Virus record (IMG/VR): IMGVR_UViG_3300035459_000118
Span: 1-64,000 of that record
DNA from: a virus
Length of the DNA: 64,000 nt
Strand: one strand, 5' to 3'
The position numbers and the translations under genes were made by a program. Below are positions 454 through 36,599 of this stretch, in pieces. Every line of letters begins with the position of its first letter. Positions within the stretch are counted from its first letter, which is position 1. The notes beneath the pieces are model-generated. The model searched no databases and was not told the origin of the DNA. It saw nothing but the letters and a program-made list of their open reading frames with translations.

Positions 454-2001
454 TTACTTCCTGGTATGGAACTCTTTGTTAACCTGATTGATCTTTGCCG
501 CCGTTGTTGAAGCCTGCCCATCAGACGTTAATGCCTTCTGGGAAGCTGTTCTCTGAATCTTGCCGTTCCGAAGGCTCCCGACCAGTACCGAGGCAGCCAG
601 GATCGCCGTATTAAGAGAATCGGTCGTCATGACCTTGGGGTCTTTCCAGGCGAATATCTTCTCGATTTCCTTACCGTACTCATCATTTGCCGTAGACTGG
701 ATGAGCACCGCAGCCTTGAGGGAATCCATCGTCTTCTTGTGATCCTTGGTAGGCTTCTCCAGCTTCACGCCGGGAACGAGGATGTCGGCATGGGAGATGA
801 AATCGGGCCATGCATCTTCGGTCTCCTTCTTCTCCTCTTTTTCTTTCTCCTCTTCCTTTTTGGTTTCGGCCTCCTCGGCATCCTTGGTTTTCTTCTCGGC
901 CTCTTCCTTCTCTTTGGCCTCGGCTTCCTCGCGGAGCTTCTTCTCCTCCTCGGTCTCGTCAGCGTCTTCGGTTTCCATCTCCTCGAAGATTTCGCCAAGG
1001 ATCTCCTTGATCATCGCCTTAAGCTCGGCCCTGTTCTCTTCGGCATCCTTGGTGGCCTTTTCTTTGGCTTCGGCCTCTTCTTTCTCGCGCTTGGCCTTCT
1101 CCTCCGGAGTCTCCTCAGCATCATTGGCTTTGGCCTCTTCGGCAAGTCGCTTTGCCTTTTCCTCTTCCGTCTCATCAGCATCCCTTACGCCAAGGCTATC
1201 GAGAAACCGAAGAACCTTTACCGCCATACTGACTTTCTTCTCGGCCATATCTTCTTCCTCCTGTTGACTGTCCGTCGTTTTTTTATTCTTTCCACAAGTG
1301 CATTTCCCGCAGCCTGTGCATGGTGCTTGATCTTGAATTTTGCAACGATCTCCCGCACGACCCTTGGCAACAAGGGCAACGTGATTGCCAATAATGCCCA
1401 TCTGTTTCCCAAGTCCCGGTTGAATCTGGGCGTATTCGGCATCATATCCGCACGAAAGCTCTCTCTGACCAGACTTGATAAGATTGATCGCCTCCTCAGT
1501 TGTGACCAGAATATCGGCAAGCATCAAATCTCTCTGCTCTCCGATTCCTCGATGAACATTCTGAATCGTCCCATGGGCCAAATTGCTCCAATTTTCGGGA
1601 CCGACAAATCCTTTGGGATGATTCAATGTCAAGGGCTTACCCTCAAAGGACTTCAGTGCAATCTCATTGAATACATCAGTCTCATCACGCTGAATCCGAA
1701 TCATCCCATCTGGGGTTGCTTCTACTATCGGTTTCCCGTCATTTCCAATAAGATCGTTCGCCCTGTAAAGAAATTCCCCGATACGCGTAATGGGGACATC
1801 CGTACAAAGAAGATACTTTTCAGGTGTCTCAGCAATATGCTCAGAAAGCTGCTCGGTTACATAAAACCTTATTGCCTCATCAACCCCAGTAATTTTGCCG
1901 GCATTCTTGGAGGCATAGAAGACCTCTTTTGCCTTCTCTTCAGAACCGTATTCTTTGATCATGTTTTCCATGATCAATTTTCCTTTTTCGGTAAGGGGCA
2001 T
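454..2001 (-). CDS. Prohead protease/scaffold (DUF2213-like) with acidic repeat C-terminal region
   Basis: Motifs SFEGKPLTLNHP, ELSCGYDA, NHVALVAKGRAG; DA(D/E)ET(E/P)EEK repeats. Likely start is MPLTEK at 2001. Confidence 0.85.
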   Translation of the reverse strand: MPLTEKGKLIMENMIKEYGSEEKAKEVFYASKNAGKITGVDEAIRFYVTEQLSEHIAETPEKYLLCTDVPITRIGEFLYRANDLIGNDGKPIVEATPDGMIRIQRDETDVFNEIALKSFEGKPLTLNHPKGFVGPENWSNLAHGTIQNVHRGIGEQRDLMLADILVTTEEAINLIKSGQRELSCGYDAEYAQIQPGLGKQMGIIGNHVALVAKGRAGDRCKIQDQAPCTGCGKCTCGKNKKTTDSQQEEEDMAEKKVSMAVKVLRFLDSLGVRDADETEEEKAKRLAEEAKANDAEETPEEKAKREKEEAEAKEKATKDAEENRAELKAMIKEILGEIFEEMETEDADETEEEKKLREEAEAKEKEEAEKKTKDAEEAETKKEEEKEKEEKKETEDAWPDFISHADILVPGVKLEKPTKDHKKTMDSLKAAVLIQSTANDEYGKEIEKIFAWKDPKVMTTDSLNTAILAASVLVGSLRNGKIQRTASQKALTSDGQASTTAAKINQVNKEFHTRK

Positions 2002-2005
2002 TAAC

Positions 2006-3202
2006 TTATCCTTGATTTTTCTTTTTCTCTCTATTCTTATCAAAACGGGCCAATCGTTTTCTGAGGGCTTCTTGTAATTGCTCAGGAGTTTTACTCTTTC
2101 GATAATTTAACCCCTTTGACGGGGTTAAGTGCCCCTTCTTCCCCGACCCTTCGCCGCCGTCGATAGTTGCTTTTTCGTGTTTGTCATTTCTTTTGTCACA
2201 TTCAACTTGAGCCATAATACCAGAAGGAAATGGCCCTGTTTCATCTCCGCCTTCAGGATCTTCGACATAATATTTCTCATTGGCATACTTTTCAACATGG
2301 TAATAACGACCGCCATCCTTCGTGGGCTTTTCTGCACCAGATTCCATCTTCTGGAGTCTGGTATAATAATCAGGAATCTCCGCAAGGTGATCCAGGGCTA
2401 TCCGTCTGGCGATAATGGGATTGTCAGTGTGCTCCCTCTCAACCTTATCTCCCATAGCAAGTTCTTTCTGGTCGATCTTGGTTATGTCTCCCTGGGTTGC
2501 GAATTTGCCATTGGAAAAGAAAGACTGCAACAGGGCATAAGAGACATCCTCCAGCTCGGAAGGCTCAATGCCCAAAGCCTTGGCTATCGAATGGATGTCC
2601 CGATGGTCCTCAATCTTCTTATCAGAGGAGAACAGCGCGATAAGCTGCTTTACCTTATCGTCAATGACAAGGCCGGAGAAGGGGGCGATCTTCTGGGCTT
2701 CCTCGGAAGATAAAGAGGAATCTTTGGACGACTTTGTTAATTTTGCTTTAGCTGCTTTTTCCCTTCGTTCTCTTTGCTTCGCCTCAAATTTTCTTCTAAA
2801 AGCAAGAAAACCGGCAGTAGAATGTCCCTTCTGCCCAGAGCCAGGACCGCCATCCTTTGTCCCCGAACAATCCTTCGCTTCCTTCTCAGTCACTTCCAGA
2901 AGAGGGTCAAGCGCACCGCCGAACAGTTCAGAGAGGGCGGAATCTTTAGCCTTGCTCTTTTCTACTGCCTTTTGAACTTCATCCATTTCCTTAGCAGTTA
3001 AATCAAAAGATTGCGATACTTTACTCATCGCATCATCAAATCCAGAACCATTTTTCATCATTGTAATGATCCTGTTTGCTGCATTAACAATATCGACACT
3101 CGCATCCTTCCCGATAATCCTTCCGTCTTTCACTTCTTTGATATCGCAAGTAAGCATCGTTTTCTCCTTGCCGGAAATCGGCTCAGCAAAAAGTTCTTCC
3201 AT
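2006..3202 (-). CDS. Multi-module head-associated protein with DUF5661-like domain
   Basis: ELAMGDKVEREHT...IALDHLAEIPDYYTRL motif; two DGGxGSGxKGH motifs; lies between MuF and the protease. Confidence 0.6.
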   Translation of the reverse strand: MEELFAEPISGKEKTMLTCDIKEVKDGRIIGKDASVDIVNAANRIITMMKNGSGFDDAMSKVSQSFDLTAKEMDEVQKAVEKSKAKDSALSELFGGALDPLLEVTEKEAKDCSGTKDGGPGSGQKGHSTAGFLAFRRKFEAKQRERREKAAKAKLTKSSKDSSLSSEEAQKIAPFSGLVIDDKVKQLIALFSSDKKIEDHRDIHSIAKALGIEPSELEDVSYALLQSFFSNGKFATQGDITKIDQKELAMGDKVEREHTDNPIIARRIALDHLAEIPDYYTRLQKMESGAEKPTKDGGRYYHVEKYANEKYYVEDPEGGDETGPFPSGIMAQVECDKRNDKHEKATIDGGEGSGKKGHLTPSKGLNYRKSKTPEQLQEALRKRLARFDKNREKKKNQG

Positions 3203-3282: not shown

Positions 3283-4095
3283 CTATCCTTCTGGAAGCTG
3301 GACATCAGGCCAGCAACGGCAACGCCATATTGCTCCAGCATGGTGAGCAATCATATTTGGCTTCTTATCTGAACCCTCATTAATCAATGGAGGATTATCC
3401 CAACGACAGAAAACCCCATTCATTTTCCTGTGGGACCTACGCACAACCAAATCCCCCACCGTCCTCCAGACATACCCCTCAGACCCTACATAAGTCGCCC
3501 TCGCCTGAGTCAAAGCGACCCCAGCCTTACTCACCTCGGTAGAAGCAATATTCTCCGCCCTGGACTTCGCCACCGATTCGCTGGCCATTATCATCTTGGC
3601 TATGTCATCAGCCCTGTTACTCTGCGACATATTCAAAAGAATCAGCTTATGCACTCTCTCGGCAGCCTGGGTGGGGATTGACTTTATCAGAGTGACATTT
3701 TGTTGCATTATTTCCTTGAGAACATCTCCTGTTGGCGCGTTCTGGATCTCATCCCTCAAGGCAGAAGCCATTTGCGCCGTGTGCTGTCTCCAGGCAAACT
3801 TGTCCTGATTGTCAACCGAACGGAAGACGTTATTGCAGACATGAAGAGCCCAAGGACCCAAAATATCAGAATATGCTCTCAATGCCCTTGTCAGGGAATC
3901 TTCAAGGTCAGGGTTCAGAGGGTCGTCAGCCATATAGCCCTTTACTAGCTTGCCTACCTCGCGAGCAACTCCCCGCAGAATTCGCTCATAGGTATTGGAA
4001 ATCCCCCTGCTCTTATTGGCAAATGGAGAATCCTGGCCTTTCCTCTTTATGGGAGGAGGTAGTGGCTTTTTTGTTGAGGCGTCGAAGGTGTACAT
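3283..4095 (-). CDS. MuF-like minor head morphogenesis protein
   Basis: WRTVGDLVVRRSH...HAGAIWRCRC signature; adjacent to portal. Confidence 0.9.
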   Translation of the reverse strand: MYTFDASTKKPLPPPIKRKGQDSPFANKSRGISNTYERILRGVAREVGKLVKGYMADDPLNPDLEDSLTRALRAYSDILGPWALHVCNNVFRSVDNQDKFAWRQHTAQMASALRDEIQNAPTGDVLKEIMQQNVTLIKSIPTQAAERVHKLILLNMSQSNRADDIAKMIMASESVAKSRAENIASTEVSKAGVALTQARATYVGSEGYVWRTVGDLVVRRSHRKMNGVFCRWDNPPLINEGSDKKPNMIAHHAGAIWRCRCWPDVQLPEG

Positions 4096-4221
4096 TTATC
4101 CCTTGATCTCTGTTTCTTTTTTTGCTGGATCAAAACCCAGAATCTCTATTACATCTTTGGGAGTCTCAACCATTTCCTCGTCGTCAGGATCTTCGATGTC
4201 TTCTTTCTGTTCTTCGCTCAT
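4096..4221 (-). CDS. Small acidic protein (41 aa)
   Basis: Manual translation MSEEQKEDIEDPDDEEMVETPKDVIEILGFDPAKKETEIKG; ATGA overlap with the portal stop and abuts the MuF start. Confidence 0.65.
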   Translation of the reverse strand: MSEEQKEDIEDPDDEEMVETPKDVIEILGFDPAKKETEIKG

Positions 4222-6665
4222 GCTCGTATTCCCTCTCTCCAAGATGAAAACACCCTTGGATCTATGTAGGCTTGAAGCGCCACAACGGGAGTATTTCCTA
4301 ATCTCTGACTGACCCCCTTGGCGATCAGCATTACCTTTTTCTTATATTCTTGAAAAGTGCTCGGAGGTTTCTCGTTCTTGAGTAATTCAATAGCTGTCGA
4401 AGTCCCAACGTGAGTACGGAAATCCTTCGTCTTGAACTCTTTGCCATCAAGAGAATGCGAATATTCAGAAAGCTTATCGGCACTGGTATTGAAAATTCTC
4501 CCTTCATTCCCAACCTTCTTCTTACGTTTCAAAAGCATTTTCGCAATCGCAGGATCGCTGACAGGGATATTTAAATCAACCCCCTTTTTGCCAACATACC
4601 GCAGAAAAATATCTCCATCTTCTTCTACAATATGGCGACCCTCCAATGTTGTAGCCCCATACGCCTTCTTCTTAGCATGATTATCTTTATCACTTCCGGG
4701 ACGGATACCAGTTTTCATTATCAGGGCAAGGCAAGCAGCCCTCTCGTCTTTATTTACCTTGCTGGCATTTTCTTTCCAGACAACATCAAACTGCTTACGA
4801 AGCGAAGTAATTCTTTGATATTTCTTTTTCGCATTTTCATCCAAATCTTCATATATCAATTCTGTCTGTGACTTTTTCTTTTCTCCTGCCTCGCTGGCGC
4901 CTTTCTTTACAAACTCGCCACCATGCTCACCAGAATTGGCACGAGGATGTTCTTCTTCTTTAAAATCAGCATCCAGATATTTTCTCGCCAACTTTCTCAG
5001 GGCATCCTTAAAACGAATTTTCTTTTTGACAGAATCCTGTGTTTTCGGAATATCCCCTTTCTCTTTTCCTTTTTCATTTAAAAGATCTGGATTCTGACCA
5101 CCCAAAGGCTCATTGCCATCAGGATTCTCGGGAACCTCACCTCCTCCACCTCCAGCTCCCGGACCTCCACCCATTCCATTCAACATTGCTTCCAGGTCCC
5201 CAGGAGGAGGCTCATCCTCGGCATCTTTAATCTCCTCGGCAGTGATATTGGTGAACCTACCAGTGATTTCGCTCTGCTGCCTCAATTCCTTGAGAGCTGT
5301 CGCCTTAGTAGTCACCCCTGAACCAAAAGTCGTCGACTGGGTCTGAGCATCCTGTGTAGCAATCTGAGACTTCTCCATCTCCGAAAGCTGCCACAAAGGT
5401 TTGAACGAAAACTGAAAATCTTCGGGAAGGTTCTTACCCGACCTTGACTTCTCCATTACGGCAATGAGCTTACCGAGCTGAGGACGAACCTGATTCTCTT
5501 GGTCCTTCTTGATACGATCGTAATAATTCCTCAAGTCAGATTCGCCAGTAGAATTCAATCCTGCCGGCGACTGACCGAACAACCGTACCAACGGGATCCC
5601 CGTAGCACCGGAAACCTGCATCCCGAATTGCTGAATAAGGTCAGGAATACCGGAAAACGTATACTGATGAGTATCAAACTCGTCCTCTCCGTCAAGGACC
5701 GTTATTCCCTCCAACCCCTGGAGCATGTTGATATAGTTCACATGCTTGATAATCGCTTGCTCGTCCCTGCCGCTGTTAGCCAAGGCCTGCCTCAACCCCT
5801 TGAACTTGATTACCCGCAGGTAAGCCTTATAGAGCAACTGCGCACCGCCCTGGGTAGCAGAGTCAAAGGCAATAAGCCTATCCAGCATCCGTTCGACGAC
5901 GGAGAGCCCCCAAAGGTTCTCGAAGAGCTTCTGGAAATATGGGAGCTCGATCCCATCAAACCGAATTACCCTCGTATAATGAATCTTCTGTTCCGGGAAA
6001 ACCGTGACCCCTCCGAAGGTTTCGTAGAACTTGGGCTTCCCCATATCCTTGCAAACTTCGGTTACCAACTCGCCCATACTCGGCTGAATCATCCAGCGAT
6101 CCAGAACGACCAGCCCCTTGAACTGATCCTTGCGAATCTTCTCCACGTCAAGTGGCTTTGAATAATCCGCACCGTCTATGAGCATAACGGCAATGGCACC
6201 GCCGTAAAGTCTTGCCCATTTGATCGTCGAACATAAAGATTGCCAAATGTCGAATTCATTGATGGAAACCTGGAGCTTCTCTATATCGTCAGGTTTCATC
6301 TCCGAATGCATGGATATTCCCTCTCTGGTCATATCCTCTCCAACCACATCCACCACCTGCCCAACCAGCCACGAAGAACGATACATGGCTTCCAGCTCTA
6401 TATGATTCCTGGAAATGAACGGCCCAAGATTGTAATAACTATGAGAGATTTGATTCCGTTGATCCTGATTCCCGAGTCGAGCTACCATGTTACCGAAAGA
6501 ATCCTCTGTCTGAAGGCTTTTTGTGGATGACATTGGTTGCTGCACAGGAGTCGGAGGGCCCTGCATGGAAAGGAGTCTCCCTGGCGTCATGGGAATGCTG
6601 TCTGCCTTCGCTTGCTGCTGCGCCTTCTGCTGCTGTGTTATACTCTTGTTGCCGTGCTTAGACAT
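4218..6665 (-). CDS. Portal protein (DUF1073-like) fused to a C-terminal type IB DNA topoisomerase domain
   Basis: Portal motifs WARLYGGA, ATGIPLVRLFGQSPAGLNSTGESDLRNYYD. Then a Gly/Pro linker, an EHPR..G.F motif, and TopIB motifs IRPGS, YGATTL, GKKG, KDFRT, LGNTP, AYIDP. Confidence 0.85.
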   Translation of the reverse strand: MSKHGNKSITQQQKAQQQAKADSIPMTPGRLLSMQGPPTPVQQPMSSTKSLQTEDSFGNMVARLGNQDQRNQISHSYYNLGPFISRNHIELEAMYRSSWLVGQVVDVVGEDMTREGISMHSEMKPDDIEKLQVSINEFDIWQSLCSTIKWARLYGGAIAVMLIDGADYSKPLDVEKIRKDQFKGLVVLDRWMIQPSMGELVTEVCKDMGKPKFYETFGGVTVFPEQKIHYTRVIRFDGIELPYFQKLFENLWGLSVVERMLDRLIAFDSATQGGAQLLYKAYLRVIKFKGLRQALANSGRDEQAIIKHVNYINMLQGLEGITVLDGEDEFDTHQYTFSGIPDLIQQFGMQVSGATGIPLVRLFGQSPAGLNSTGESDLRNYYDRIKKDQENQVRPQLGKLIAVMEKSRSGKNLPEDFQFSFKPLWQLSEMEKSQIATQDAQTQSTTFGSGVTTKATALKELRQQSEITGRFTNITAEEIKDAEDEPPPGDLEAMLNGMGGGPGAGGGGGEVPENPDGNEPLGGQNPDLLNEKGKEKGDIPKTQDSVKKKIRFKDALRKLARKYLDADFKEEEHPRANSGEHGGEFVKKGASEAGEKKKSQTELIYEDLDENAKKKYQRITSLRKQFDVVWKENASKVNKDERAACLALIMKTGIRPGSDKDNHAKKKAYGATTLEGRHIVEEDGDIFLRYVGKKGVDLNIPVSDPAIAKMLLKRKKKVGNEGRIFNTSADKLSEYSHSLDGKEFKTKDFRTHVGTSTAIELLKNEKPPSTFQEYKKKVMLIAKGVSQRLGNTPVVALQAYIDPRVFSSWREGIRA

Positions 6666-6815: not shown

Positions 6816-7922
6816 TTATTTTTGTTGAACAGCTTTAATCTTTTCCCATTCATAGCCAAATATCTTATGATTTGTATCTGCATCACCAACCCTTGTTCCC
6901 TTCTTATGACTCTTGATTGCCTTCTTGAAATCCTCAATGGTCATTTTATCAATCGGGCCAAGATGAGAAGCATCATCATAGTGAGCGAGGAAGGCATTGC
7001 GAGCATGGAGCTCGTCTGAGAAACCGAGAAAACACTTGTCCTCGTCATATTTTCCATCCACTTTTTCACGAACAATAAAAACAAACGGGGCATCATTAAC
7101 AGGGCCAACAAAGCAATCAATAGGATCTCCATCAACACCTTCGGTTCCAAGGATTTCGCCATAGGGGTAGAACATCTTGACTTCAAATTGCTCACCATGA
7201 CTGTCCTCCCCTTTGCGAATGGAACCTTGGGGATTTTCTATATGAATCTTGAGTCCTTGGAAATCAATGTTGGATTCGGAATCGGAGGTTGAAACAACTT
7301 TACTAGGCAATAATAATTCAGATTCATTGATCCCAACGTACCCTGAATTTACCCAAGGAATATCGTTTTTATGAACAGTGAATTTTTTAACAACCCCATG
7401 TTTCCCTGCGAATCCTTTCGCAATATTCTTATCAAAAGAAAAACTGTCGTATTTACCTGGTTTTGAATTGCTGGAAGTATCTCCTCTATACACTGTTAAA
7501 AGATCAGGGACATCACTCCATGTCTTATATCTCTTCGACTCTAAAGAAGTAAGAATTCTGTTCTGCCTCGCAGCTTCAAAAGTATTTGGTAAATCCATTT
7601 CAAAATTCTCAAGCTCTTCGAAAAACTTAGCAAAAATCTTTTGTTTATCTCCTTCTCCACGGAAGATATCTTCAGCAGCATCATCTATCTTATCAGTAAG
7701 CCGTTCTACTTTATCGTAATGAAAATTGACACCAGAAGCAAACCAGTCCTTACCTTTACGATTATATTCGGTAAGCCTCTCTTCTTTTTTAGATAGCCCA
7801 CTTACTTCGGCAAACTTTCCATCCTCTTCTCTGGGATGCTCACTTTCAACAAATGCCTCCGCATCCCTCGTCTGAAGGTATTTGCTTTCTTTCATATCTT
7901 TCACGATGTCGTAGAGAAGCAT
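6816..7922 (-). CDS. Polyvalent protein: HPR motif, ADP-ribosyltransferase-like domain and inorganic pyrophosphatase-like (InPase) domain
   Basis: EHPREEDGKF; YRG...SFS...ESE (R-S-E type ART); IENPQGSIR...YGEI.GTEGVDGDPIDCFVGP...DEDKCFLGF. Confidence 0.7.
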   Translation of the reverse strand: MLLYDIVKDMKESKYLQTRDAEAFVESEHPREEDGKFAEVSGLSKKEERLTEYNRKGKDWFASGVNFHYDKVERLTDKIDDAAEDIFRGEGDKQKIFAKFFEELENFEMDLPNTFEAARQNRILTSLESKRYKTWSDVPDLLTVYRGDTSSNSKPGKYDSFSFDKNIAKGFAGKHGVVKKFTVHKNDIPWVNSGYVGINESELLLPSKVVSTSDSESNIDFQGLKIHIENPQGSIRKGEDSHGEQFEVKMFYPYGEILGTEGVDGDPIDCFVGPVNDAPFVFIVREKVDGKYDEDKCFLGFSDELHARNAFLAHYDDASHLGPIDKMTIEDFKKAIKSHKKGTRVGDADTNHKIFGYEWEKIKAVQQK

Positions 7923-11819: not shown

Positions 11820-13982
11820 TCACATATCTCCCAAGTACAGCACCTTGTAAGTGCTTGCCGCATTCGGATCAAATCCCGCTTCCTTGACCAAGTATCCCCT
11901 GCTCCCGCCCTTGGTGGAGAGGAGGAGTGCACCTGTGGCGGCTGGCATGGTGACTGGTTCAAGTTTCCAGTTGTCCATGGTAGCGTTTACAGCAGCACTA
12001 TTTCTTTTAATAACCGCCGTAGAATTCTTGCAAGTAAAATACCCTGCTTGACTTGCTCCTATACTTGAATAAATTTTCCCTGTTGAGGCTCCTGCTATAT
12101 TATCGCCAGCTAAAAAAGTACCGGTTATTGCACTAATATCAAGCGTAGTCCGATAAAGAGTACCTATCGTTAAAACACTCTTTTGTATTCCGATTGCTGT
12201 ACCGTCGGAAACCAAGTGCATGTTACCGGCAGGATTTTGTTCTGTATAATTGTTCCCATCAAGAACACCATACTGGCTCCATCCGGTAGGCAACGATCCT
12301 GTCCAAGCCGTAAAATCATTTCCCACATCTGCTCCCACCGCCAGCCCACTCGGAGCCGTACTTGATATATACCCCGCTGCCATCCCCGTAGCCTGATAGA
12401 AGGCGATCATGTACCTGCCATCCTGATATGGGGAGAGATCAACTCCCACCGGAGCAGCGAAAGCGTTGCTCACAGTGGTGTCCATCAGGGCATTGCCTGC
12501 TGTGATGGAGCCAGTGGCTACGATGGGAGCGTTCAGCACCTTGAAGAGTTGGTAGGTGTAGCCACTTGGGTCATTGTAGTTGAACACCGCATCCTTGGCA
12601 GACCAGTTGTAGAGAGTGCCACCCTTGAGAGAGGTGATGGTGGAGCCGGAAGTGGAGGGGGTGAGGACTTGAGCTACGCTCATCCCAGGAAATGTAGCAG
12701 TCAAGGGGCTGATTGCAGTAATTCCTGTGCTTGTTGCTCCAGCCGTAACAGCGGTATGATACTCGGTATGAGTTGCTGCATCCGTAAAGGTAGCACTTGC
12801 AGTACCATCTCTTCTAATTGCCCAAGTTCCAGAAGTTAGACTATCGCATGTAACTGATGATTTTAACAGTTTACCCTGTACGGATAAAAGTTGCGCTGTT
12901 CTTGTCGCAGCAAGAGCGGCGGCAGCGGCTGCCTTCCCAGCCGCAACCAACCAGCCCGTATCTTGTGTTGTCCATTTCGAGGTATCGTCAAACGTGGGAT
13001 CGAGTAAAAGTTCTGTGCTTGTCTCCCCCGTCCCCACGCTCCTCGTGAATCCCTGTATCGCCCTGCCAGCAGAGTCACGAACGACGAGGAGATGGCCCTG
13101 GTGATTGGTCAGAGGGGTAACGCTGAATATCTCATACGTCACTCCACCTGAGTAGTTGGGATCGAACGTGGCATCCTGGTAGGCCCAGGACTGAGTCGCA
13201 CCGCCAGAAGTGGAGTAGATTTTGGCTCCAGTGGTGGCGAGGTCGGTGACACGTTGGACTGAAATAGATGTAACATCCGTCTGCCCACCTGTAGCTCGTA
13301 CCTCAATAGTGCCCGAAGCTACAGTACTTGTTGCATACTTATTCCCCCCCCCCAAAGTGGCAAAGATTATAGAATCAGTCTGGTTATCTCTTATACTAGG
13401 ATTCGTACCAGTTGAAGCTCCCACAAAGGATGATTTGTATAAGGCGTAACGGGTTAAAATAGAGGTTTTCTTAACACCACCAAAATCAGTACAGCTAAAA
13501 GAATCAGTATCAATTATCGTTGTTGTTCCTACCGTTCCCCACCCACTGGTAAAATTAAAAGTAGCAAACGGATTTGTATCTAACGCCTCCCCCCCTGCCG
13601 CTCCAATATACCCCTCAATCCTCAGCCCATTACTCCTGACCCTGATCTTCTTCCCGATGTGAGCAGACAGATCGACCCCCACCAGTTCAAGGAGAGCACC
13701 GGCAGCAACCGTAGCAATCCGGGTGTTTATTGCCGTTACCGTACCAGAAGCGACGGGTGTAAGATCATTGACTGTTGTAGCAACAAAATCAGCGAATGCC
13801 CCACCGGAGGCAGTCCCTTCTCCATTTGTGGCGGAGATCTTCATGTTCTGTTGACTGACGGTTCCAGAGGCTACAAGTATCTTGGATACGGTATCATCCT
13901 CTTCCCCACCAGCCCACGCGGTCTGGAAGGGGAGAACGACCAGAGACAGGCAAAGGAGGTATGCGAGAAATCGTTTAAACAT
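11820..13982 (-). CDS. Signal-peptide-bearing beta-rich fibre/adhesin-like protein with three internal repeats
   Basis: MFKRFLAYLLCLSLVVLPFQTAWA leader; Thr/Gly/Ser-rich; repeated G.I.S.KGG...DA.FD.N...Y motif. Confidence 0.55.
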   Translation of the reverse strand: MFKRFLAYLLCLSLVVLPFQTAWAGGEEDDTVSKILVASGTVSQQNMKISATNGEGTASGGAFADFVATTVNDLTPVASGTVTAINTRIATVAAGALLELVGVDLSAHIGKKIRVRSNGLRIEGYIGAAGGEALDTNPFATFNFTSGWGTVGTTTIIDTDSFSCTDFGGVKKTSILTRYALYKSSFVGASTGTNPSIRDNQTDSIIFATLGGGNKYATSTVASGTIEVRATGGQTDVTSISVQRVTDLATTGAKIYSTSGGATQSWAYQDATFDPNYSGGVTYEIFSVTPLTNHQGHLLVVRDSAGRAIQGFTRSVGTGETSTELLLDPTFDDTSKWTTQDTGWLVAAGKAAAAAALAATRTAQLLSVQGKLLKSSVTCDSLTSGTWAIRRDGTASATFTDAATHTEYHTAVTAGATSTGITAISPLTATFPGMSVAQVLTPSTSGSTITSLKGGTLYNWSAKDAVFNYNDPSGYTYQLFKVLNAPIVATGSITAGNALMDTTVSNAFAAPVGVDLSPYQDGRYMIAFYQATGMAAGYISSTAPSGLAVGADVGNDFTAWTGSLPTGWSQYGVLDGNNYTEQNPAGNMHLVSDGTAIGIQKSVLTIGTLYRTTLDISAITGTFLAGDNIAGASTGKIYSSIGASQAGYFTCKNSTAVIKRNSAAVNATMDNWKLEPVTMPAATGALLLSTKGGSRGYLVKEAGFDPNAASTYKVLYLGDM

Positions 13983-14228: not shown

Positions 14229-15761
14229 TTAAGCTCCTCCATCAATAAATAATCCAACACCTGTTGATTTACATTCGTAATATCCCGTCACAACACACTT
14301 GCACCTTATCGACGCACGGATAGTCCCATCCGAAGTAGCCTTATTACCGGCAGCCAGAGCGGTTCCATTCAGGTAGATGACATCCGTTCCAGTTACTACA
14401 TCCACGCTGAACACCGTCGCAGTTGTCGCCATCACCTCAACATTACGACCAATAACAGCCGTCGGAAGCGAGGCAATGTATGCTCCTGTAACAAGGGCTG
14501 TCTGACCTGTTGTCTCATTGATGGTCAAATTGCGGGTAGAAGAAACCGTAACCACCTGGGTGTCTCCAAGAAGTCGGCCATCCCCCTTACGATAAGAATA
14601 ACACAACCAATTCCCGGAACCCAAAGATTCAAACACTGCTGTATCACCAACAGCAGTTGTGATTGTTCTGGCTCCTGGGAGAATAAATGACGTCACATTG
14701 TATGTCAGATCCCGAGCGACTGTGAAACGCAAATAAAAGATGTATCCCGCAGGGACCGTACCGAACGTGGAAATGGCTGTCGCATCAGTTGTAATATCCA
14801 AAACATCTCCGGTAGCTGTTGATAAATCTACCGTCGCGCCGGCAAAGTCAGCACCCTTACCTCGAATCTGGCCGGTCCCATAGTGACCTGGGCCGTAGAG
14901 TTGCAGACTAGCGTTATTCCCGACAGTAGCAACGGAAAGGAACTTGCCGACAATCTGCAAACCATTTCCAACTGCCGTACTGTTTGTTTGACCGCTATCC
15001 CTACACCTTCCGGCTGTTCCGGTGCCAACAACAGCAAGATTTCCAATCACGGGAGTATTGTCAGCTACACAATTTACAATTCCCCTTGTGGCTACTTCAA
15101 GAGATTGACCTGAAGTCTTGGTGGAAATGGCAACACCCAAAATACCTACGTCACCAACAACAGCAGTTACCACATTCCCCGTATTATCAATCTTCACAAG
15201 AAGATTTGCAGTCGTTCCAGTTGTGCCGGCAGTCTTGGTTGTGCTTAGGTATGAAGACCCAAGAGTGGATGGAGCTGTTCCTTTGATGAATCCAGCCCCA
15301 GTTGTAGAGGTTGTATAATCGGTCCCTGCGCCTGCAGCAGAAATCGCTCCAGCTCCGTTTGCTTTCACAATCCCGTTCACGGCACCGACTACAGGATCTG
15401 TCTCGGTAATTACCCCGCCGCTACATTCACCATATACGAGAGACCCATCAGATCCGGCAACCTTGATGCAATATCCAACAGTAGCCGTACCGGTAACAAT
15501 CGTTGATATGGGGATACCGTTTATAATTGACCCGTCAGGCATCATATATTTAGCTGCCTGGACGGGCATGGTGCTGTACTGACGTGCTCGTGCGGCACTA
15601 GCTGGGGCAACCGTAGTAGCATTTACGATCGACACAATGCGGCCGTCGGGCAAGAGGACTTTGTCCGCAATGGGAGGATAATTGTCATATGAAGGCGTTG
15701 CCGCTAATGCCGAAAGCGAAAGCAGCAAAATCATCATTACTATAGAAAATATCTTTTTCAT
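14229..15761 (-). CDS. Signal-peptide-bearing fibre-like structural protein
   Basis: Likely start MKKIFSIVMMILLLSLSALA at 15761 with GGAGGT RBS; ETDP, AAGAGTDY and LPG...ITTAVGD...SLGSGNW fibre-type motifs. Confidence 0.55.
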   Translation of the reverse strand: MKKIFSIVMMILLLSLSALAATPSYDNYPPIADKVLLPDGRIVSIVNATTVAPASAARARQYSTMPVQAAKYMMPDGSIINGIPISTIVTGTATVGYCIKVAGSDGSLVYGECSGGVITETDPVVGAVNGIVKANGAGAISAAGAGTDYTTSTTGAGFIKGTAPSTLGSSYLSTTKTAGTTGTTANLLVKIDNTGNVVTAVVGDVGILGVAISTKTSGQSLEVATRGIVNCVADNTPVIGNLAVVGTGTAGRCRDSGQTNSTAVGNGLQIVGKFLSVATVGNNASLQLYGPGHYGTGQIRGKGADFAGATVDLSTATGDVLDITTDATAISTFGTVPAGYIFYLRFTVARDLTYNVTSFILPGARTITTAVGDTAVFESLGSGNWLCYSYRKGDGRLLGDTQVVTVSSTRNLTINETTGQTALVTGAYIASLPTAVIGRNVEVMATTATVFSVDVVTGTDVIYLNGTALAAGNKATSDGTIRASIRCKCVVTGYYECKSTGVGLFIDGGA

Positions 15762-15780
15762 CTGCGTTACCTCCAGAATT

Positions 15781-17055
15781 TCAAACAAAATCTGCGAACG
15801 AAAGAGCCTTTGCCAATTGAAGTTCCGTAAATCCCCAAACCAGGGCATCCATCCTATTCGGGCTTCTCTCTCCTGGCGTCCAGAGACACATCTCGTCCTC
15901 AAGATATCCGAACGTTCCTACATGGTGACCGCGACCTTGCTCATACACGATTGAGACAGGTTCTGCCCTTGTTCGCTTTGACTTAGAGGCGGAAACCAGG
16001 ACGACCTTTACCTGCCGATCTACCTGGGCTATGACCTGAGCGATCATCTCTCCGCCGTTATTCTTCTCGGCTACTATATACATTGCGCCAGACTGGTAAA
16101 GAGCAGCAACAGCAGCCTTAGCCCAAACAAGTGGAGTGCCTTGAATCGAATCATCACGAAATACATACCCATGATTCTTGCATTTTCCGCACGTTATGAT
16201 CCCGCACTCATCGCCAGTGGAGGAAACCGAAGGGTCAATTGCCACAATGATCTTCTCCATTTTGGGAAGATCGGAGAAGACCCTGGTCTTCTCTATCGTA
16301 TCTCTCCTCCAGAGGGCACCAGGAACCTCATCAACATCCTCGGCCAGAATCTCCATCCTGTACGCGACCGAGGTCATATCCTGAGTAATCTCGCTCAGAG
16401 CAGCTTTACTGAGATGAGGATTGTCCATCGAAGTAAAATGGAAGGCTGCATAACGAGCAGGATTCAGCTTCTGTTGTTCAGATATCTTTTTAAAGAGCTT
16501 TGCTGCATGCTGAGGATCGCTCGCCTTTGTCTTGAGAGCCGACCTCGTCCGCAGCGACGGAGGGGTATATATGAATATCGCATCTCCGTCTGTATCCAGA
16601 AGCATGGGGGCTCCAACCAACCCCCATGCATCTTCATTCATCAACTGCCATTCATCAAGGATTAGGACATCCGCATAATCTCCCCGAAGGGAATCCGCGT
16701 TCCAGGCTGTCTTTGCCTTGATACGCTGCTCGGTCCCTGGGACCTCAATGTAATGCTCCGATTCGTTTTTATAAAGAACCTTCGCTTTAATCGGCTCATC
16801 AAGTGCTCTTGTTACTGTCGCCCAGAATCTGCCGATCTGCTCCATCGTAGGAGCTGCGTAGAGAACCCGCTTTTGCTTTAAGAATACCTCGGTACCAAGT
16901 ATCCCGACTCCTACTGTCTTGCCTCCCCGTCGGCCTGCCTTGATCATCTTGCGCTTTGCAGGAGAATCAATGAACTCTCTCTGCTTGGGGGTAGGCCTTG
17001 GTAATCTTACCTTATAAGTACGTGCCTCTTGTTGGGACGATGATGCCTCCTGCAT
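15781..17055 (-). CDS. terL: Terminase large subunit
   Basis: AGRRGGKT Walker A, LILDE Walker B, IVAIDPS and NRMDA nuclease motifs. Confidence 0.95.
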   Translation of the reverse strand: MQEASSSQQEARTYKVRLPRPTPKQREFIDSPAKRKMIKAGRRGGKTVGVGILGTEVFLKQKRVLYAAPTMEQIGRFWATVTRALDEPIKAKVLYKNESEHYIEVPGTEQRIKAKTAWNADSLRGDYADVLILDEWQLMNEDAWGLVGAPMLLDTDGDAIFIYTPPSLRTRSALKTKASDPQHAAKLFKKISEQQKLNPARYAAFHFTSMDNPHLSKAALSEITQDMTSVAYRMEILAEDVDEVPGALWRRDTIEKTRVFSDLPKMEKIIVAIDPSVSSTGDECGIITCGKCKNHGYVFRDDSIQGTPLVWAKAAVAALYQSGAMYIVAEKNNGGEMIAQVIAQVDRQVKVVLVSASKSKRTRAEPVSIVYEQGRGHHVGTFGYLEDEMCLWTPGERSPNRMDALVWGFTELQLAKALSFADFV

Positions 17056-17804
17056 CAGACAGTATCCCCTTCCTGTTGTACGGGTTTATCGGTATATTCC
17101 ACCAAGAGTTTGACAGGAGTATTAAGATCGATCTCGTGCTTATCCTTAAATATCCCGATCTCCTGACCCATCTTTATCAATGCCCCCGGCTTATCGTAAA
17201 GCTCGAATTCAATACGCTCGTCGATTATCTCATCGCCAGGATTTCCATCTATCGACTTCCTGACGAGAACACGGCGCGTCCTGTTTATTCTAATCTTCTT
17301 GATTGCCTTGCTTGCCTGAAATGGTAGGTCCTTAAGATTGGTAATCTTAATGTCTCCTTCTGGAGTAAGATAATCGGCAATATCAGAGTGTGCGAGAATG
17401 GACATCTCCTTGAGCACTTTGGCTTTATCATTGATATACCGGGTGGAAATGTCCTTCTCTTTTGCTGTGATTGCCTCTTGTACTTTAATACTACTTAAAA
17501 CCTGAGAAGCCCTGACAGCAGCAGACTCATCTGAAGAAACATTAAAGCTCTTACAACGGAGTACAGCTTGCATCCCATTGTAATCCTTTGTATATTCACG
17601 AACAAACTCGCGCTGCTTACTAGTAAGACCAAAAGGATCAGTATCTAATCTCCCATTCTTGCTCACTGTGCTTTTCTTCTTCTTGGGAGGAAGAAATCTT
17701 GAATTATTAAATCTCCTACTACCTGCACCATAGAATACTTGTTTCTGGGAGGTTTGATCTTTTGGTTGAGGTATGTTGAATCGGCTGGTCATATTGGTTT
17801 CCAT
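17055..17804 (-). CDS. terS: Terminase small subunit
   Basis: LTSKQREFVREYTKDYNGMQA HTH and ELYDKPGAL...LG.F motifs; overlaps the terL start. Confidence 0.9.
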   Translation of the reverse strand: METNMTSRFNIPQPKDQTSQKQVFYGAGSRRFNNSRFLPPKKKKSTVSKNGRLDTDPFGLTSKQREFVREYTKDYNGMQAVLRCKSFNVSSDESAAVRASQVLSSIKVQEAITAKEKDISTRYINDKAKVLKEMSILAHSDIADYLTPEGDIKITNLKDLPFQASKAIKKIRINRTRRVLVRKSIDGNPGDEIIDERIEFELYDKPGALIKMGQEIGIFKDKHEIDLNTPVKLLVEYTDKPVQQEGDTV

Positions 17805-33853: not shown

Positions 33854-34737
33854 ACTTCGACATCATTAGATTTCTCGAAGAGTATTCCATTCAGCACAGA
33901 ATCCGTGGGCAAAAAACAACCCGAGGCTGGGTCCAGCTTCAAATCTGCCCATTCTGCGCCGGTGATAACTATTATCTTGGAATCAACACCTCAAAATTAT
34001 TTTTTCACTGCTGGCTATGCCACAAGTCCGGAGAAATGGTCTTCCTCGTTAGAAACCTTCTGGGAGTAGACTATCGGCAAGCAAAAGAAATTGTAGAAAA
34101 ATACGGCGGGATTTCTCTCTCAGAAGAAGAACCTATCAAACCTGCCGAACAAGTCGTAATTCCTGGAATGACAGGGCTTCAACCGATTCATCTCAACTAC
34201 CTACGGTCAAGGAACTTCGATCCAGCCTTCCTGGAACGAAGATACAGGATAAACGCCTGCTATACCGGAGGACGCTTCCCGTATAGGATAGTAATTCCAA
34301 TCTATGACAATGGAAGGCTGGTCAATGCCACCTCCAGGGACGTCACCGGCCAACAGCAAGAACGGTATATGTCCCTAAGAAACGAAGAGGCTGTCGTCCC
34401 TCGCAATGAATGCGTCTACAACATAGATTCGGTTGTCGGTGAAAACGTTCTAATTGTCGAAGGGCCGTTCGATGTCTGGAGGATAGGAGGGGCGACGGTA
34501 TCCCTATTGGGGACGGACTCCAGCATGGCCCAAACAATGAGGATCGTCGCGAAATTACCAAAGAACCTTTATATCATCTTCGACAGTGAGGAACAAGCAC
34601 AAAAGCACGCATCAGAATTGGCCTTTTGCTTCGCTCCATTTGTCAAACACGTCGAGATTGTGACCATCCCGGTCAAAGATCCAGCTTCTCTGTCTCCAGA
34701 ACAAGGGTTGGAAATAAGAAACGAATTAAATTTATGA
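33850..34737 (+). CDS. DNA primase (Zn finger plus TOPRIM)
   Basis: CPFC...HCWLC; IVEGPFD; IFD; KDP. Confidence 0.9.
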   Translation: MNFDIIRFLEEYSIQHRIRGQKTTRGWVQLQICPFCAGDNYYLGINTSKLFFHCWLCHKSGEMVFLVRNLLGVDYRQAKEIVEKYGGISLSEEEPIKPAEQVVIPGMTGLQPIHLNYLRSRNFDPAFLERRYRINACYTGGRFPYRIVIPIYDNGRLVNATSRDVTGQQQERYMSLRNEEAVVPRNECVYNIDSVVGENVLIVEGPFDVWRIGGATVSLLGTDSSMAQTMRIVAKLPKNLYIIFDSEEQAQKHASELAFCFAPFVKHVEIVTIPVKDPASLSPEQGLEIRNELNL

Positions 34738-34748
34738 AAGGAAAACCC

Positions 34749-36599
34749 ATGGAAATCACCGAATTGAAAGAAAAGATCATCTCTGCATCACAAGATTATT
34801 ACTCGGGAAATCCTCAAATTTCAGACGATGAATTCGATGCATTGATCGAAGAACTCAGAACTACCAACCCGGAGGACGAACTTCTAAAAACCATATCGAC
34901 CGGATACTCTTCAGAATTGGATCATTCTGGCGAAAAAGCCAAGCATAAATACCTGACAGTTGGATCTTTGAGCAAAATCAACTCAACCAACTGCGAGAAG
35001 CACTTTGAAAAAAAACCAGGACAATATGTCATCACCAGCAAGATCGACGGCGGCAGTGTAGTCTGTTACTATGGAGACACCGGAAAATTTGAAAAGGCCG
35101 TCACTCGTGGGGACGGAACAATCGGGATTGACTGCACTGCCAAAATGAAATACATTGTCCCAAAAAATATCGGACTATATGACGTGGCGATTCGTGGCGA
35201 AATCACCATGACAAAAGAGATGTTCAATCTTTTCTATCCTGATGCCGCAAGCCCAAGAAACACGGCAATGGGGTTGCTCTCGAAAGACAATCCTACTCCA
35301 GAAGAGCTGCTTCGTCTTTCTTTTGTCTCGTATAACATCTATGGACCGGCAGGGGACAAAGAAATCCCTCCCTATCATAAGAAATCAAAAGTCATGCAAG
35401 ACCTCCACGAAAACGGATTCACCATTGTTCAATATACAAAACTTTTCGACATGGACCCGAGATTTTTGGAGTCCCTTAAAGGCAAGCTCAGCCCAGAATT
35501 TCCTGCGGACGGACTGGTCATCACCAACGAATTAAATAGATTTGAAGAAATTGCCTATAAATTTGTAGCTGAAACAGCAGAAACAACCGTGACAAAAATC
35601 GAATGGGAGACTTCTCGCCTTGGGAATGTTATCCCTGTTATCTATTTCAATCCGGTAAAACTTTCGGGAGCAACCCTGCAAAAATGCTCCGGATTCAATG
35701 CAAAATGGGTCTGCGATAATCGAATTGGTCCAGGGGTCAAGATTATTGTTCACCGCGCTGGCGAGGTAATTCCGGCAATAAAATCCGTTTTCCCAGAAAT
35801 CCCAGGAAGAAGGCAAACAAATAGACCATCTGAATGCCCAGACTGTTCAACCGTGTTGGAATGGGTAGGTGTTAATCTTTATTGTCCGAACAAAGACTGC
35901 TCTAAAAAAGTTGTTTCAAGACTCCTTCTATGGCTTGAATACATGGCTCCAGTGGATTCGCTCGGAGAAAACATCTTGCTTCCATTCCTGAAGGAAATAC
36001 GATGGACTTCCATTAAGGATATTTACAGTCAACGAAAATGGAATGATTTCATCGATAAATTTATCGCCGGACATACGATGCACGCTTGCGAACTCCTATG
36101 GAAAATGCACGACAAACTCTACCAGGAATCGGTTGATCCAGGAAAATTCTTTGCAGCTTTTGGCCTGCCAAGTGTTGGAGGGACAATATCAAAAAAGATA
36201 TCCGAAGAAATTGGGCTTGACCGGTATTTTGAGTATGGTCCCGATACAGCAATGAACCTCGGCAGAATCACAAAACCGGCATTGAAATCCCTATATGAAA
36301 ATTTCAGTTACATGAAAGAAATATACCAACAAATCAAATCCGCGCAAGGCTTTATCAAGAAAGAAAAAAGCGATGGTATCAAAGTTGCCATTACAGGGAA
36401 ATTGTCAAAGCCAAGAAAAGATCTCATTTCGGAATTTGCAACCCATGAAATCGAGGTTGTTGATTCAGTTTCAAAAGGAGTTGCCTATCTCATTACCGAC
36501 AACCCAAATTCAGGGTCAAGCAAAAATACCTCGGCACAAAAGCTGGGGGTACAAGTAGTTTCTGAAACAGAATTCAGGGTTATTGTTAAAATGACGTAA
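34749..36599 (+). CDS. ligA: NAD-dependent DNA ligase
   Basis: ISDDEFD, KIDG, TRGDG, Zn finger, C-terminal BRCT. Confidence 0.95.
   Translation: MEITELKEKIISASQDYYSGNPQISDDEFDALIEELRTTNPEDELLKTISTGYSSELDHSGEKAKHKYLTVGSLSKINSTNCEKHFEKKPGQYVITSKIDGGSVVCYYGDTGKFEKAVTRGDGTIGIDCTAKMKYIVPKNIGLYDVAIRGEITMTKEMFNLFYPDAASPRNTAMGLLSKDNPTPEELLRLSFVSYNIYGPAGDKEIPPYHKKSKVMQDLHENGFTIVQYTKLFDMDPRFLESLKGKLSPEFPADGLVITNELNRFEEIAYKFVAETAETTVTKIEWETSRLGNVIPVIYFNPVKLSGATLQKCSGFNAKWVCDNRIGPGVKIIVHRAGEVIPAIKSVFPEIPGRRQTNRPSECPDCSTVLEWVGVNLYCPNKDCSKKVVSRLLLWLEYMAPVDSLGENILLPFLKEIRWTSIKDIYSQRKWNDFIDKFIAGHTMHACELLWKMHDKLYQESVDPGKFFAAFGLPSVGGTISKKISEEIGLDRYFEYGPDTAMNLGRITKPALKSLYENFSYMKEIYQQIKSAQGFIKKEKSDGIKVAITGKLSKPRKDLISEFATHEIEVVDSVSKGVAYLITDNPNSGSSKNTSAQKLGVQVVSETEFRVIVKMT

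Follow-up and report, generated by a model that had tools for sequence, protein, structure and literature searches.

Enzymatic domains fused to phage portal proteins have been described before. Passages of Iyer et al. from 2017 (PMC5512222) already describe portals fused to PBECR, 2H and InPase domains, and InPase portals are also present in cultured Pbunavirus and Bcepfunavirus phages. In one of these, the Pa193 portal gp19 has a C-terminal barrel and a 237-residue C-terminal extension for which the virion map shows no density (PMC11456595), and the portal barrel of P22 is described in passages of another report as directed inward (PMC4992974). Poxviruses, according to passages of a further report, encapsidate a type IB topoisomerase (TopIB) that supports early transcription (PMC12188299).

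We analyzed one uncultured 99-kb phage genome, of which the first 64,000 nt (the window) contain a portal gene that continues into a TopIB domain. The initial annotation had taken this gene to extend MuF-type cargo fusion to the portal, a claim that the published portal fusions above do not allow. Thus, portal cargo as such is known, and what is new is TopIB as the portal cargo, an acidic partner of the enzyme, and a tag shared among cargo proteins.

The portal-topoisomerase protein

The gene is a single, uninterrupted ORF of 815 aa on the minus strand, in which a portal, a Gly/Pro linker, an HPR tag and a TopIB catalytic domain follow one another (Table 1), much as the initial annotation had proposed from the letters alone. 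HMM searches and structure prediction agreed on the two domains: Phage_portal_3 (PF06381) matched residues 90-442 with an E value of 3.1e-113 (Pfam), Topoisom_I (PF01028) matched residues 612-795 with an E value of 9.8e-18 (64.8 bits against a curated cut-off of 23.7; 69.6 bits in the genome-wide search), and the AF2 model of the TopIB domain reached a pLDDT of 89.5 and a pTM of 0.82. The linker that had been noticed was evident in the composition of residues 485-566, where 16 Gly and 9 Pro occur among 82 residues; domain and family searches with residues 490-544 returned no family match. The HPR motif was located at residues 567-585.

Table 1. Features of the portal-topoisomerase locus (window coordinates)
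Feature	Position	Strand	Details
Portal-TopIB ORF, whole (P0001)	4218..6665	-	815 aa
Portal moiety, residues 1-489	5199..6665	-	Pfam PF06381 core, residues 90-442, window 5340-6398
Gly/Pro-rich flexible linker, residues 490-544	5034..5198	-	composition
Basic amphipathic helix and HPR tag, residues 545-585	4911..5033	-	tag itself 4911-4967
TopIB catalytic domain, residues 610-815	4221..4838	-	Pfam, PDB phmmer, AF2, Foldseek, invariant columns
Catalytic codons	R655 4701-4703; K693 4587-4589; R750 4416-4418; N791 4293-4295; Y800 4266-4268	-	
Acidic partner ORF, 41 aa	4096..4221	-	ATG overlaps TopIB TGA (ATGA); TAA abuts MuF ATG
MuF-type head morphogenesis protein P0123, without cargo	3283..4095	-	PF04233 and phrog_324
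DUF5661 protein P0122	2006..3202	-	two 'DGGxGSGxKGH' motifs, 2129-2155 and 2822-2848
DUF2213-type head maturation protease P0124, acidic scaffold-like tail	454..2043	-	PF09979 E 2e-42, phrog_530
Tagged cargo protein P0121	6816..7922	-	N-terminal HPR tag 7812-7838; ART-like middle; InPase PF18823, residues 218-337

The window derives from one metagenomic contig, and two separate genes might have been joined by an assembly or frameshift artefact. However, PF06381 and PF01028 were found together in one protein in 64 of 120 protein clusters among the matches listed, independent clusters from four sources (ENA, JGI, Logan and NCBI), and in 20 of 80 IMG/VR loci, and the linker and the tag are conserved among the relatives. 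Because so many clusters and loci share this architecture, an accident of assembly is extremely improbable.

The portal moiety is about 50% identical to the portals of cultured Burkholderia and Acinetobacter phages, and the match stops at about residue 489. Homologues of solved structure are the portals of Pam3 (8hds, E 1.5e-40), E217 (8fvh) and Pa193 (9b41, E 1.7e-18). Terminase, MuF, protease and capsid accessory genes surround the ORF, confirming that it lies in a head module; scans for promoters, terminators and tRNAs gave nothing above chance. By analogy with its homologues, the protein would form a dodecameric ring at one capsid vertex, and about 12 TopIB copies per capsid would follow if the portal is indeed dodecameric and is not cleaved before assembly.

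The identity of the C-terminal domain was supported by several comparisons. A PDB phmmer search aligned it with the D. radiodurans TopIB (2f4q, E 2.3e-13). Foldseek placed human, Deinococcus and variola TopIB among the matches (1rr8, E 2.9e-9; 3m4a, TMq 0.69), and its top 22 were all TopIB enzymes, whereas tyrosine recombinases were far weaker. Each catalytic motif picked out previously is present: R655, K693, R750, N791 and Y800 aligned with R137, K174, R239, N280 and Y289 of 2f4q. These five columns did not vary in 27 relatives of 43-71% identity, suggesting that the chemistry is under selection. Conservation of N791 and Y800 leaves the religation chemistry intact, which argues that the enzyme is a genuine topoisomerase and not a nuclease. 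About 15 residues follow the catalytic Tyr before the protein ends.

The enzyme had also been called intact, and in this respect the initial annotation has to be corrected, because portal-TopIB and its closest clade lack the N-terminal clamp domain. PF21338, the N-terminal beta-sheet clamp domain, gave no match in portal-TopIB at E values up to 1 (Pfam), whereas a domain HMM found the clamp in 75 of 81 related ORFs. The clamp spans about residues 36-128 of the D. radiodurans enzyme, and the alignment to 2f4q begins at residue 129 here, compared with residue 36 for a clamp-bearing relative; residues 569-598 of portal-TopIB were disordered in the AF2 model. Every member of the closest clade is portal-fused, and all lack the clamp. 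Its absence suggests that DNA binding may be weak. The catalytic fragment of vaccinia TopIB is active on its own.

A basic domain (predicted pI 9.7) that has no clamp and adjoins the DNA end could also be a non-catalytic anchor that keeps the end of the genome at the portal or helps to condense DNA. We consider this very unlikely, given that none of the five catalytic residues varies among such divergent relatives.

The acidic partner and the HPR tag

A small ORF, absent from the initial annotation, directly follows the TopIB domain. Its 41 residues include 16 D/E and 5 K/R (pI 4.05) and a conserved core, DPDDEEMxETPxDVIxxLGFDP; the peptide belongs to no Pfam or PHROG family. The overlap of its start with the TopIB stop, together with the sequence GGAGAGAGGGA upstream of that start, indicates that translation of TopIB and of the acidic ORF is coupled.

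The association of the two genes held in both directions. In 65 of 77 related loci the acidic module begins at the TopIB stop, and all 41 testable copies of DVIxxLGFDP in IMG/VR sit behind a TopIB. In four relatives the module is fused in frame to TopIB, and AF2 modeling of one such natural fusion gave a pLDDT of 69-83 for the conserved half and below 50 for the linker. The module heads another cargo protein in 22 loci; this arrangement and the in-frame fusions would fit a role as an adaptor as well. An origin of the peptide as a split-off C-terminus of bacterial TopIB was excluded, as the natural fusion aligns to 2f4q only to residue 298.

In the clade studied here, the 'hFG..DWR' N-half of the acidic peptide is missing, as is the clamp domain. 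Loss of the clamp was accompanied by loss of this N-half in five of six domain-less cases. Since these represent about two independent events and one locus (L071) is a counter-example, the covariation is suggestive only.

Vaccinia TopIB harms E. coli when expressed in it, and one could suppose that the domain is a DNA-relaxing or nicking effector directed against the host or competitors, with the acidic ORF as its immunity protein. The carrier, the enzymatic C-terminus and the small coupled downstream gene resemble the MuF polymorphic toxins (PMC5576092), and the acidic partner is strictly TopIB-specific. However, the religation chemistry of the enzyme is intact, fusion of an 'immunity' module in frame to its toxin would be unusual for such pairs, and the family is scarce in bacterial genomes, the home of temperate MuF toxins (10 matches, all on MAG contigs). 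A toxin-immunity pair is therefore unlikely.

The HPR tag of portal-TopIB, DFKEEEHPRANSGEHGGEF, has the core 'DFKEEEHPR...GEF' and conforms to the pattern [DEA][FW]xExxHPRx(3-11)GxF. The 99-kb genome contains it just twice, each time preceding cargo domains, and the tagged proteins include a separate InPase protein encoded just upstream of portal-TopIB. Among the matches listed, 81 of 120 relatives carry the tag, with at most three copies per protein, each ahead of a cargo module. The AF2 model shows the tag as disordered. Presence of the tag was not clearly linked to the DUF2213 protease (14 of 17 versus 36 of 63 loci, the 63 being truncated loci). The 31-aa tag region had no tblastn match in cultured phages, the tag was not found in cultured portal-InPase fusions, and literature searches for HPR-type motifs returned nothing relevant.

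The internal proteins of T4 carry an N-terminal capsid-targeting sequence, a short leader before each cargo as with the HPR tag; they have no sequence similarity to the HPR-tagged proteins here. By analogy, a short leader ahead of a cargo would be removed by the prohead protease. The HPR tag marks cargo modules generally and is most likely a signal for capsid targeting or for maturation cleavage.

Distribution and proposed function

The TopIB cassette family was found on 235 IMG/VR contigs by an alignment-based search; a single-sequence query gave none. There was no match to the portal-TopIB family in 50,697 GenBank phage records, and a search of 185,579 species genomes yielded 10 loci, all on MAG contigs. 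The family is thus abundant in metagenomes, the cassette is present in hundreds of uncultured phages, and no cultured relative was found, so that the family marks a gap in what culture-based phage biology sees. TopIB of Bacteroides phage BS162P1 was rejected as a related case, being free-standing with no recognisable head module around it. Literature searches found no paper on a fusion of portal and TopIB or on TopIB in phage virions.

The carriers of the cassette are diverse. They comprise four portal families (PF06381, PF05136, PF04860 and PF06074), MuF and a DUF2213 protease; the cassette is also free-standing behind leader tags, and it occurs among domains characteristic of polyvalent proteins, namely NUDIX, ART, InPase and 2H-type domains.

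These data are best explained, with a probability of roughly 0.55, by a capsid-internal, portal-borne TopIB cargo and an acidic partner that restrains the enzyme. The portal C-terminus, which forms an inward barrel in solved homologues, would carry the catalytic domain as built-in cargo behind the HPR tag, held by a flexible Gly/Pro leash about 120 residues long, so that each virion could hold up to 12 copies beside the DNA end. The tag would direct the cargo to the capsid or mark a site of maturation cleavage. The translationally coupled acidic peptide is a dedicated partner that most likely binds the basic TopIB domain and denies it access to DNA inside the producing cell, acting like a DNA mimic or an autoinhibitory tail. 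After cleavage or ejection, TopIB would relax supercoiling of the entering genome or of the host chromosome as infection begins; the model for such early relaxation is the encapsidated poxvirus enzyme in early transcription.

Alternatively, the 12 TopIB domains might stay in the portal as a swivel that nicks and reseals DNA in the channel and so eases torsion during packaging or ejection. TopIB would be covalently attached at the inner mouth of the channel, and tethering could compensate for the lost clamp in the closest clade, whose members are all portal-fused. We regard the swivel as rather doubtful. The cassette, with its tag and partner, is also found on MuF, on a head protease and in tagged proteins that stand alone, showing that it can do without a place on the portal; this favors cargo over a mechanical role specific to the portal. 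Furthermore, TopIB travels with typical effector domains, the long leash implies loose rather than fixed placement, and a dedicated inhibitor-like partner is hard to square with a role in packaging.

Beyond the cargo reading of this one protein, we tentatively entertain a wider possibility, in which many uncultured tailed phages would share a modular capsid-cargo system. Leader tags of HPR, GSGNFGH and AEGKW types would address enzymes to the head and mark the cut sites for release, and one recurrent cargo, a TopIB injected together with the genome, would reset DNA supercoiling as infection begins. A two-part acidic DNA mimic, the halves of which match the two domains of the enzyme, would silence TopIB until injection. 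For phages, such a system might then correspond to the virion topoisomerase of poxviruses, and it would include a new class of TopIB protein inhibitors.

Packaging and delivery of TopIB, if they take place, would put phages beside poxviruses as viruses whose particles contain a type IB topoisomerase. Most bacteria have no TopIB, and DNA topology could then be a lever for early host takeover or evasion of defence. The acidic partner would represent a naturally occurring peptide that regulates TopIB with high specificity. The HPR tag, for its part, could serve engineering as a portable signal by which proteins are loaded into phage heads.

Comparison with known systems

The closest described systems are the polyvalent proteins of Iyer, Burroughs, Anand, de Souza and Aravind, in which, as in portal-TopIB, a head-internal portal or MuF carrier and enzymatic effectors are combined in a phage packaging context and in one polypeptide. 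Passages of that paper (PMC5512222) place them, like the gene here, in the head module of a terminase-portal phage, with InPase, ART and NUDIX in the same architectures. In those passages, the domains treated do not include TopIB (the word 'topoisomerase' is present a single time, among the references), and neither the HPR tag ('HPR' has no match) nor a TopIB-specific acidic partner appears, there or in the other literature searched.

The MuF polymorphic toxins of temperate phages (Jamet et al. 2017, PMC5576092) likewise combine a head protein as carrier with a C-terminal enzyme that varies, followed by a small gene downstream. At the locus here that small gene is represented by the specific coupled acidic ORF, whose neutralising activity is putative. 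Unlike these toxins, the carrier is a portal, the MuF domain being encoded by a separate downstream gene, and the enzyme is a resealing topoisomerase that is scarce in bacterial genomes.

The InPase portals of Pbunavirus and Bcepfunavirus phages (Pa193 gp19, 9b41; SCUT-S1 gp20; Burkholderia phages Maja and BcepF1) are homologous to the portal here, and the order of head genes is shared: portal, MuF, small genes, protease and cement protein. Their cargo is InPase without an HPR tag, whereas the portal here ends in TopIB, and the InPase that they carry at the portal C-terminus is encoded in the phage here by a separate, tagged upstream gene.

Finally, the TopIB domain has the catalytic fold of the poxvirus enzymes (variola 2h7f, vaccinia 1a41) and of the D. 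radiodurans enzyme (2f4q and 3m4a), and it shares with the latter the R-K-R-N-Y pentad, including the Asn variant. Unlike both the bacterial and the poxvirus enzymes, it is fused to a portal, has no N-terminal clamp and is accompanied by a dedicated acidic partner.

The portal-topoisomerase reading frame and its head module

The fusion gene sits within the head module of a phage whose parent IMG/VR record is 98,971 bp long with a 123-bp terminal repeat, the window being its initial 64 kb. We found that portal and type IB topoisomerase (TopIB) core share one frame of uninterrupted codons, as the initial annotation had proposed, with Pfam matches to both domains: Phage_portal_3 at residues 90-442 (E 3.1e-113) and the Topoisom_I catalytic core at residues 612-795 (64.8 bits against a cut-off of 23.7). 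That the fusion is an assembly artefact is very improbable. phrog_146 (PHROGs, E 1e-133) concurred that the first part is a portal. This part shares about 50% identity with its counterparts in cultured Burkholderia and Acinetobacter phages, the match stopping near residue 489, and has homologues of solved structure in Pam3, E217, and Pa193. A Gly/Pro/Lys-rich stretch occupies residues 485-566, followed by the motif DFKEEEHPRANSGEHGGEF at residues 567-585. None of 50,697 GenBank phage records contained a portal-TopIB fusion; a search of species genomes, one each for 185,579 species, gave 10 matches, every one on a MAG contig.

Features of the window, head-module genes in transcription order
Feature	Coordinates	Strand	Remark
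TerS	17055-17804		first in head-module order
TerL	15781-17055		after TerS
Several genes of no assigned function			between TerL and InPase protein
368-aa protein with InPase domain (P0121)	6816-7922	minus	directly before portal-TopIB
Portal-TopIB ORF	4218-6665	minus	single open frame, 815 codons
41-aa acidic ORF	4096-4221		after portal-TopIB
MuF	3283-4095		after 41-aa ORF
DUF5661 protein	2006-3202	minus	after MuF
DUF2213 protease, acidic tail	454-2043		after DUF5661 protein
Cement protein			last, after DUF2213 protease
720-aa ORF	11820-13982	minus	between TerL and head module
557-aa ORF	14229-15902	minus	between TerL and head module
NAD-dependent DNA ligase	34626-36599	plus	
1124-aa DNA polymerase	50516-53890	plus	

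The head modules of Pbunavirus and Bcepfunavirus have the same gene order. The 720- and 557-aa ORFs matched no Pfam or PHROG family, and the latter shares about 120 nt with the 3' end of the 424-aa ORF encoding TerL. The phage has its own replication genes on the plus strand (32477-53890), encoding a helicase and a DnaB-like helicase in addition to the ligase and polymerase; no tRNA genes were found within the window.

The C-terminal 240 residues of the fusion matched D. radiodurans TopIB (2f4q, E 2.3e-13) and the variola and vaccinia enzymes (E about 1e-6). In the 2f4q alignment, R655, K693, R750, N791, and Y800 correspond to catalytic Arg137, Lys174, Arg239, Asn280, and Tyr289, and all five were invariant across 27 aligned relatives. 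A non-catalytic DNA anchor is an improbable role for such a domain. The AlphaFold2 model of residues 569-815 (pLDDT 89.5, pTM 0.82), in which the tag region is disordered, has a TopIB fold: Foldseek matched it to human Topo I, D. radiodurans TopIB (TMq 0.69), and variola TopIB, with tyrosine recombinases scoring orders of magnitude lower. The domain had been called intact, which holds for the catalytic residues and fails for the N-terminal clamp domain, a beta-sheet unit that closes the enzyme around DNA and is absent here. A PF21338 search of portal-TopIB gave no match, a domain HMM detected the clamp in 75 of 81 related ORFs and not in this one, and the alignment to 2f4q begins at residue 129, as against residue 36 for a relative. 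The deletion is common to the closest clade (P0002-P0015, L002-L004).

The acidic partner of TopIB

The ATG of the 41-aa ORF overlaps the TGA of TopIB, its TAA abuts the ATG of MuF, and a GGAGAGAGGGA stretch lies upstream. With 16 acidic residues against 5 basic ones, the peptide has a pI of 4.05 (9.7 for the TopIB domain), and it belongs to no Pfam or PHROG family. An alignment-based search of IMG/VR found related TopIB on 235 contigs; 80 loci were retrieved, of which 77 extended far enough past TopIB to be examined. For 61 of these, a regular expression detected the module hFG..DWR..DPDDEEhxxTPxDVIxxLGFDP with its start at the TopIB stop or overlapping it, and four more seen by eye raised the total to 65. 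Conversely, scanning IMG/VR for DVIxxLGFDP gave 51 matches, 41 with TopIB directly upstream, 3 at a contig end in the same acidic context, and 7 in non-acidic unrelated proteins; thus, all testable copies (41/41) follow TopIB. TopIB and the acidic ORF might also be read as a toxin-immunity pair, which we consider unlikely.

The module is in frame behind TopIB in four proteins (L072/P0072, L080, P0024, and P0026). AlphaFold2 gave pLDDT above 90 for both TopIB domains of the L072 fusion, below 50 for the linker, and 69-83 for DVIAMLGFDP, consistent with docking of this conserved stretch. At 22 loci a larger protein (200-850 aa) begins with the module, followed by a tag and further cargo domain(s), so that the module might also link the following cargo to TopIB. 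Loci at which it heads the downstream ORF include L009, L018, L023, L036, L047, L050, L069, and L077.

The hFG..DWR half is absent from the peptides of the portal-TopIB locus and L002-L004, the clade without the clamp domain. Of 6 cases lacking the clamp domain, 5 also lack this half; the cases represent only about two independent events, which makes the pairing no more than suggestive.

Leader motifs and the cargo model

The tag [DEA][FW]xExxHPRx(3-11)GxF (HPR tag) occurs twice in the whole genome, ahead of the TopIB domain and at residues ~24-38 of the separate InPase protein. It precedes TopIB in 81 of the 120 relatives listed; multi-cargo relatives carry up to three copies per protein, each preceding a module. 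A single protein of locus L072 (5005-8112; IMG/VR 3300045241_000115) joins a DUF2213 head protease, HPR tag, full TopIB, in-frame acidic module, second HPR tag, and ART domain, and is a protease-borne cargo chain. We infer that the tag is a short linear motif that directs proteins to the head, marks them for processing, or does both; no link between it and the DUF2213 protease was demonstrable.

Free-standing TopIBs bear the HPR tag or a GSGNFGH- or AEGKW-type leader in the same position. The DUF5661 protein contains DGGxGSGxKGH twice (2822-2848 and 2129-2155). Related GSGNFGH motifs stand where the HPR tag would be in some free-standing TopIBs (L015, L027, and L077), suggesting that there is another class of tag for cargo or processing. 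In P0121, residues 40-215, between tag and InPase domain, had no Pfam match and show an R-S-ExE-like pattern (YRG, SFSFD, NESELLL). The nearest ESM Atlas clusters were the ADP-ribosyltransferase families DUF4765, DRAT, ADPrib_exo_Tox, and Mod_ADP_RT (scores 0.81-0.89), a lead only towards an ADP-ribosyltransferase-like region.

We favor, at a probability of roughly 0.55, a model in which TopIB would be carried inside the capsid as cargo, held in restraint by the acidic partner, and released at entry to act on DNA. TopIB could instead be a swivel resident in the portal; however, the identical cassette of tag, TopIB, and partner rides on four portal families, on MuF, on protease, or on no carrier at all. 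This is our main argument for preferring cargo, and it leaves the swivel rather doubtful.

Comparison with known systems

Portal-borne effector domains (PBECR, 2H, and InPase, e.g. BcepF1 gp124) have already been published (PMC5512222), that article making no mention of TopIB as cargo; we found no literature describing phage TopIB carried on a portal or in a virion. Among cultured phages, we confirmed portal-InPase fusions in Pseudomonas phage SCUT-S1 gp20 (Pbunavirus, L082, 765 aa) and Burkholderia phage Maja gp004 (L094, 889 aa), both annotated only as 'minor head protein' and, unlike the InPase protein described here, without the HPR tag. In the Pa193 cryo-EM study (PMC11456595), residues 94-528 of the homologous portal were modeled, with a C-terminal barrel, and the 237 residues 529-765, which correspond to the C-terminal part of those fusions, had no density and are not discussed there as cargo; an internal cargo that is flexible or has been cleaved would give this picture. 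Proteomics has detected a polyvalent protein in phi24B virions, and vaccinia TopIB is encapsidated and used in early transcription (PMC12188299, citing its references 72 and 73). What is new here is a TopIB without the clamp domain and with a matching short peptide alongside, an InPase cargo split off into its own tagged gene, and the synteny with Pbunavirus-type head modules.
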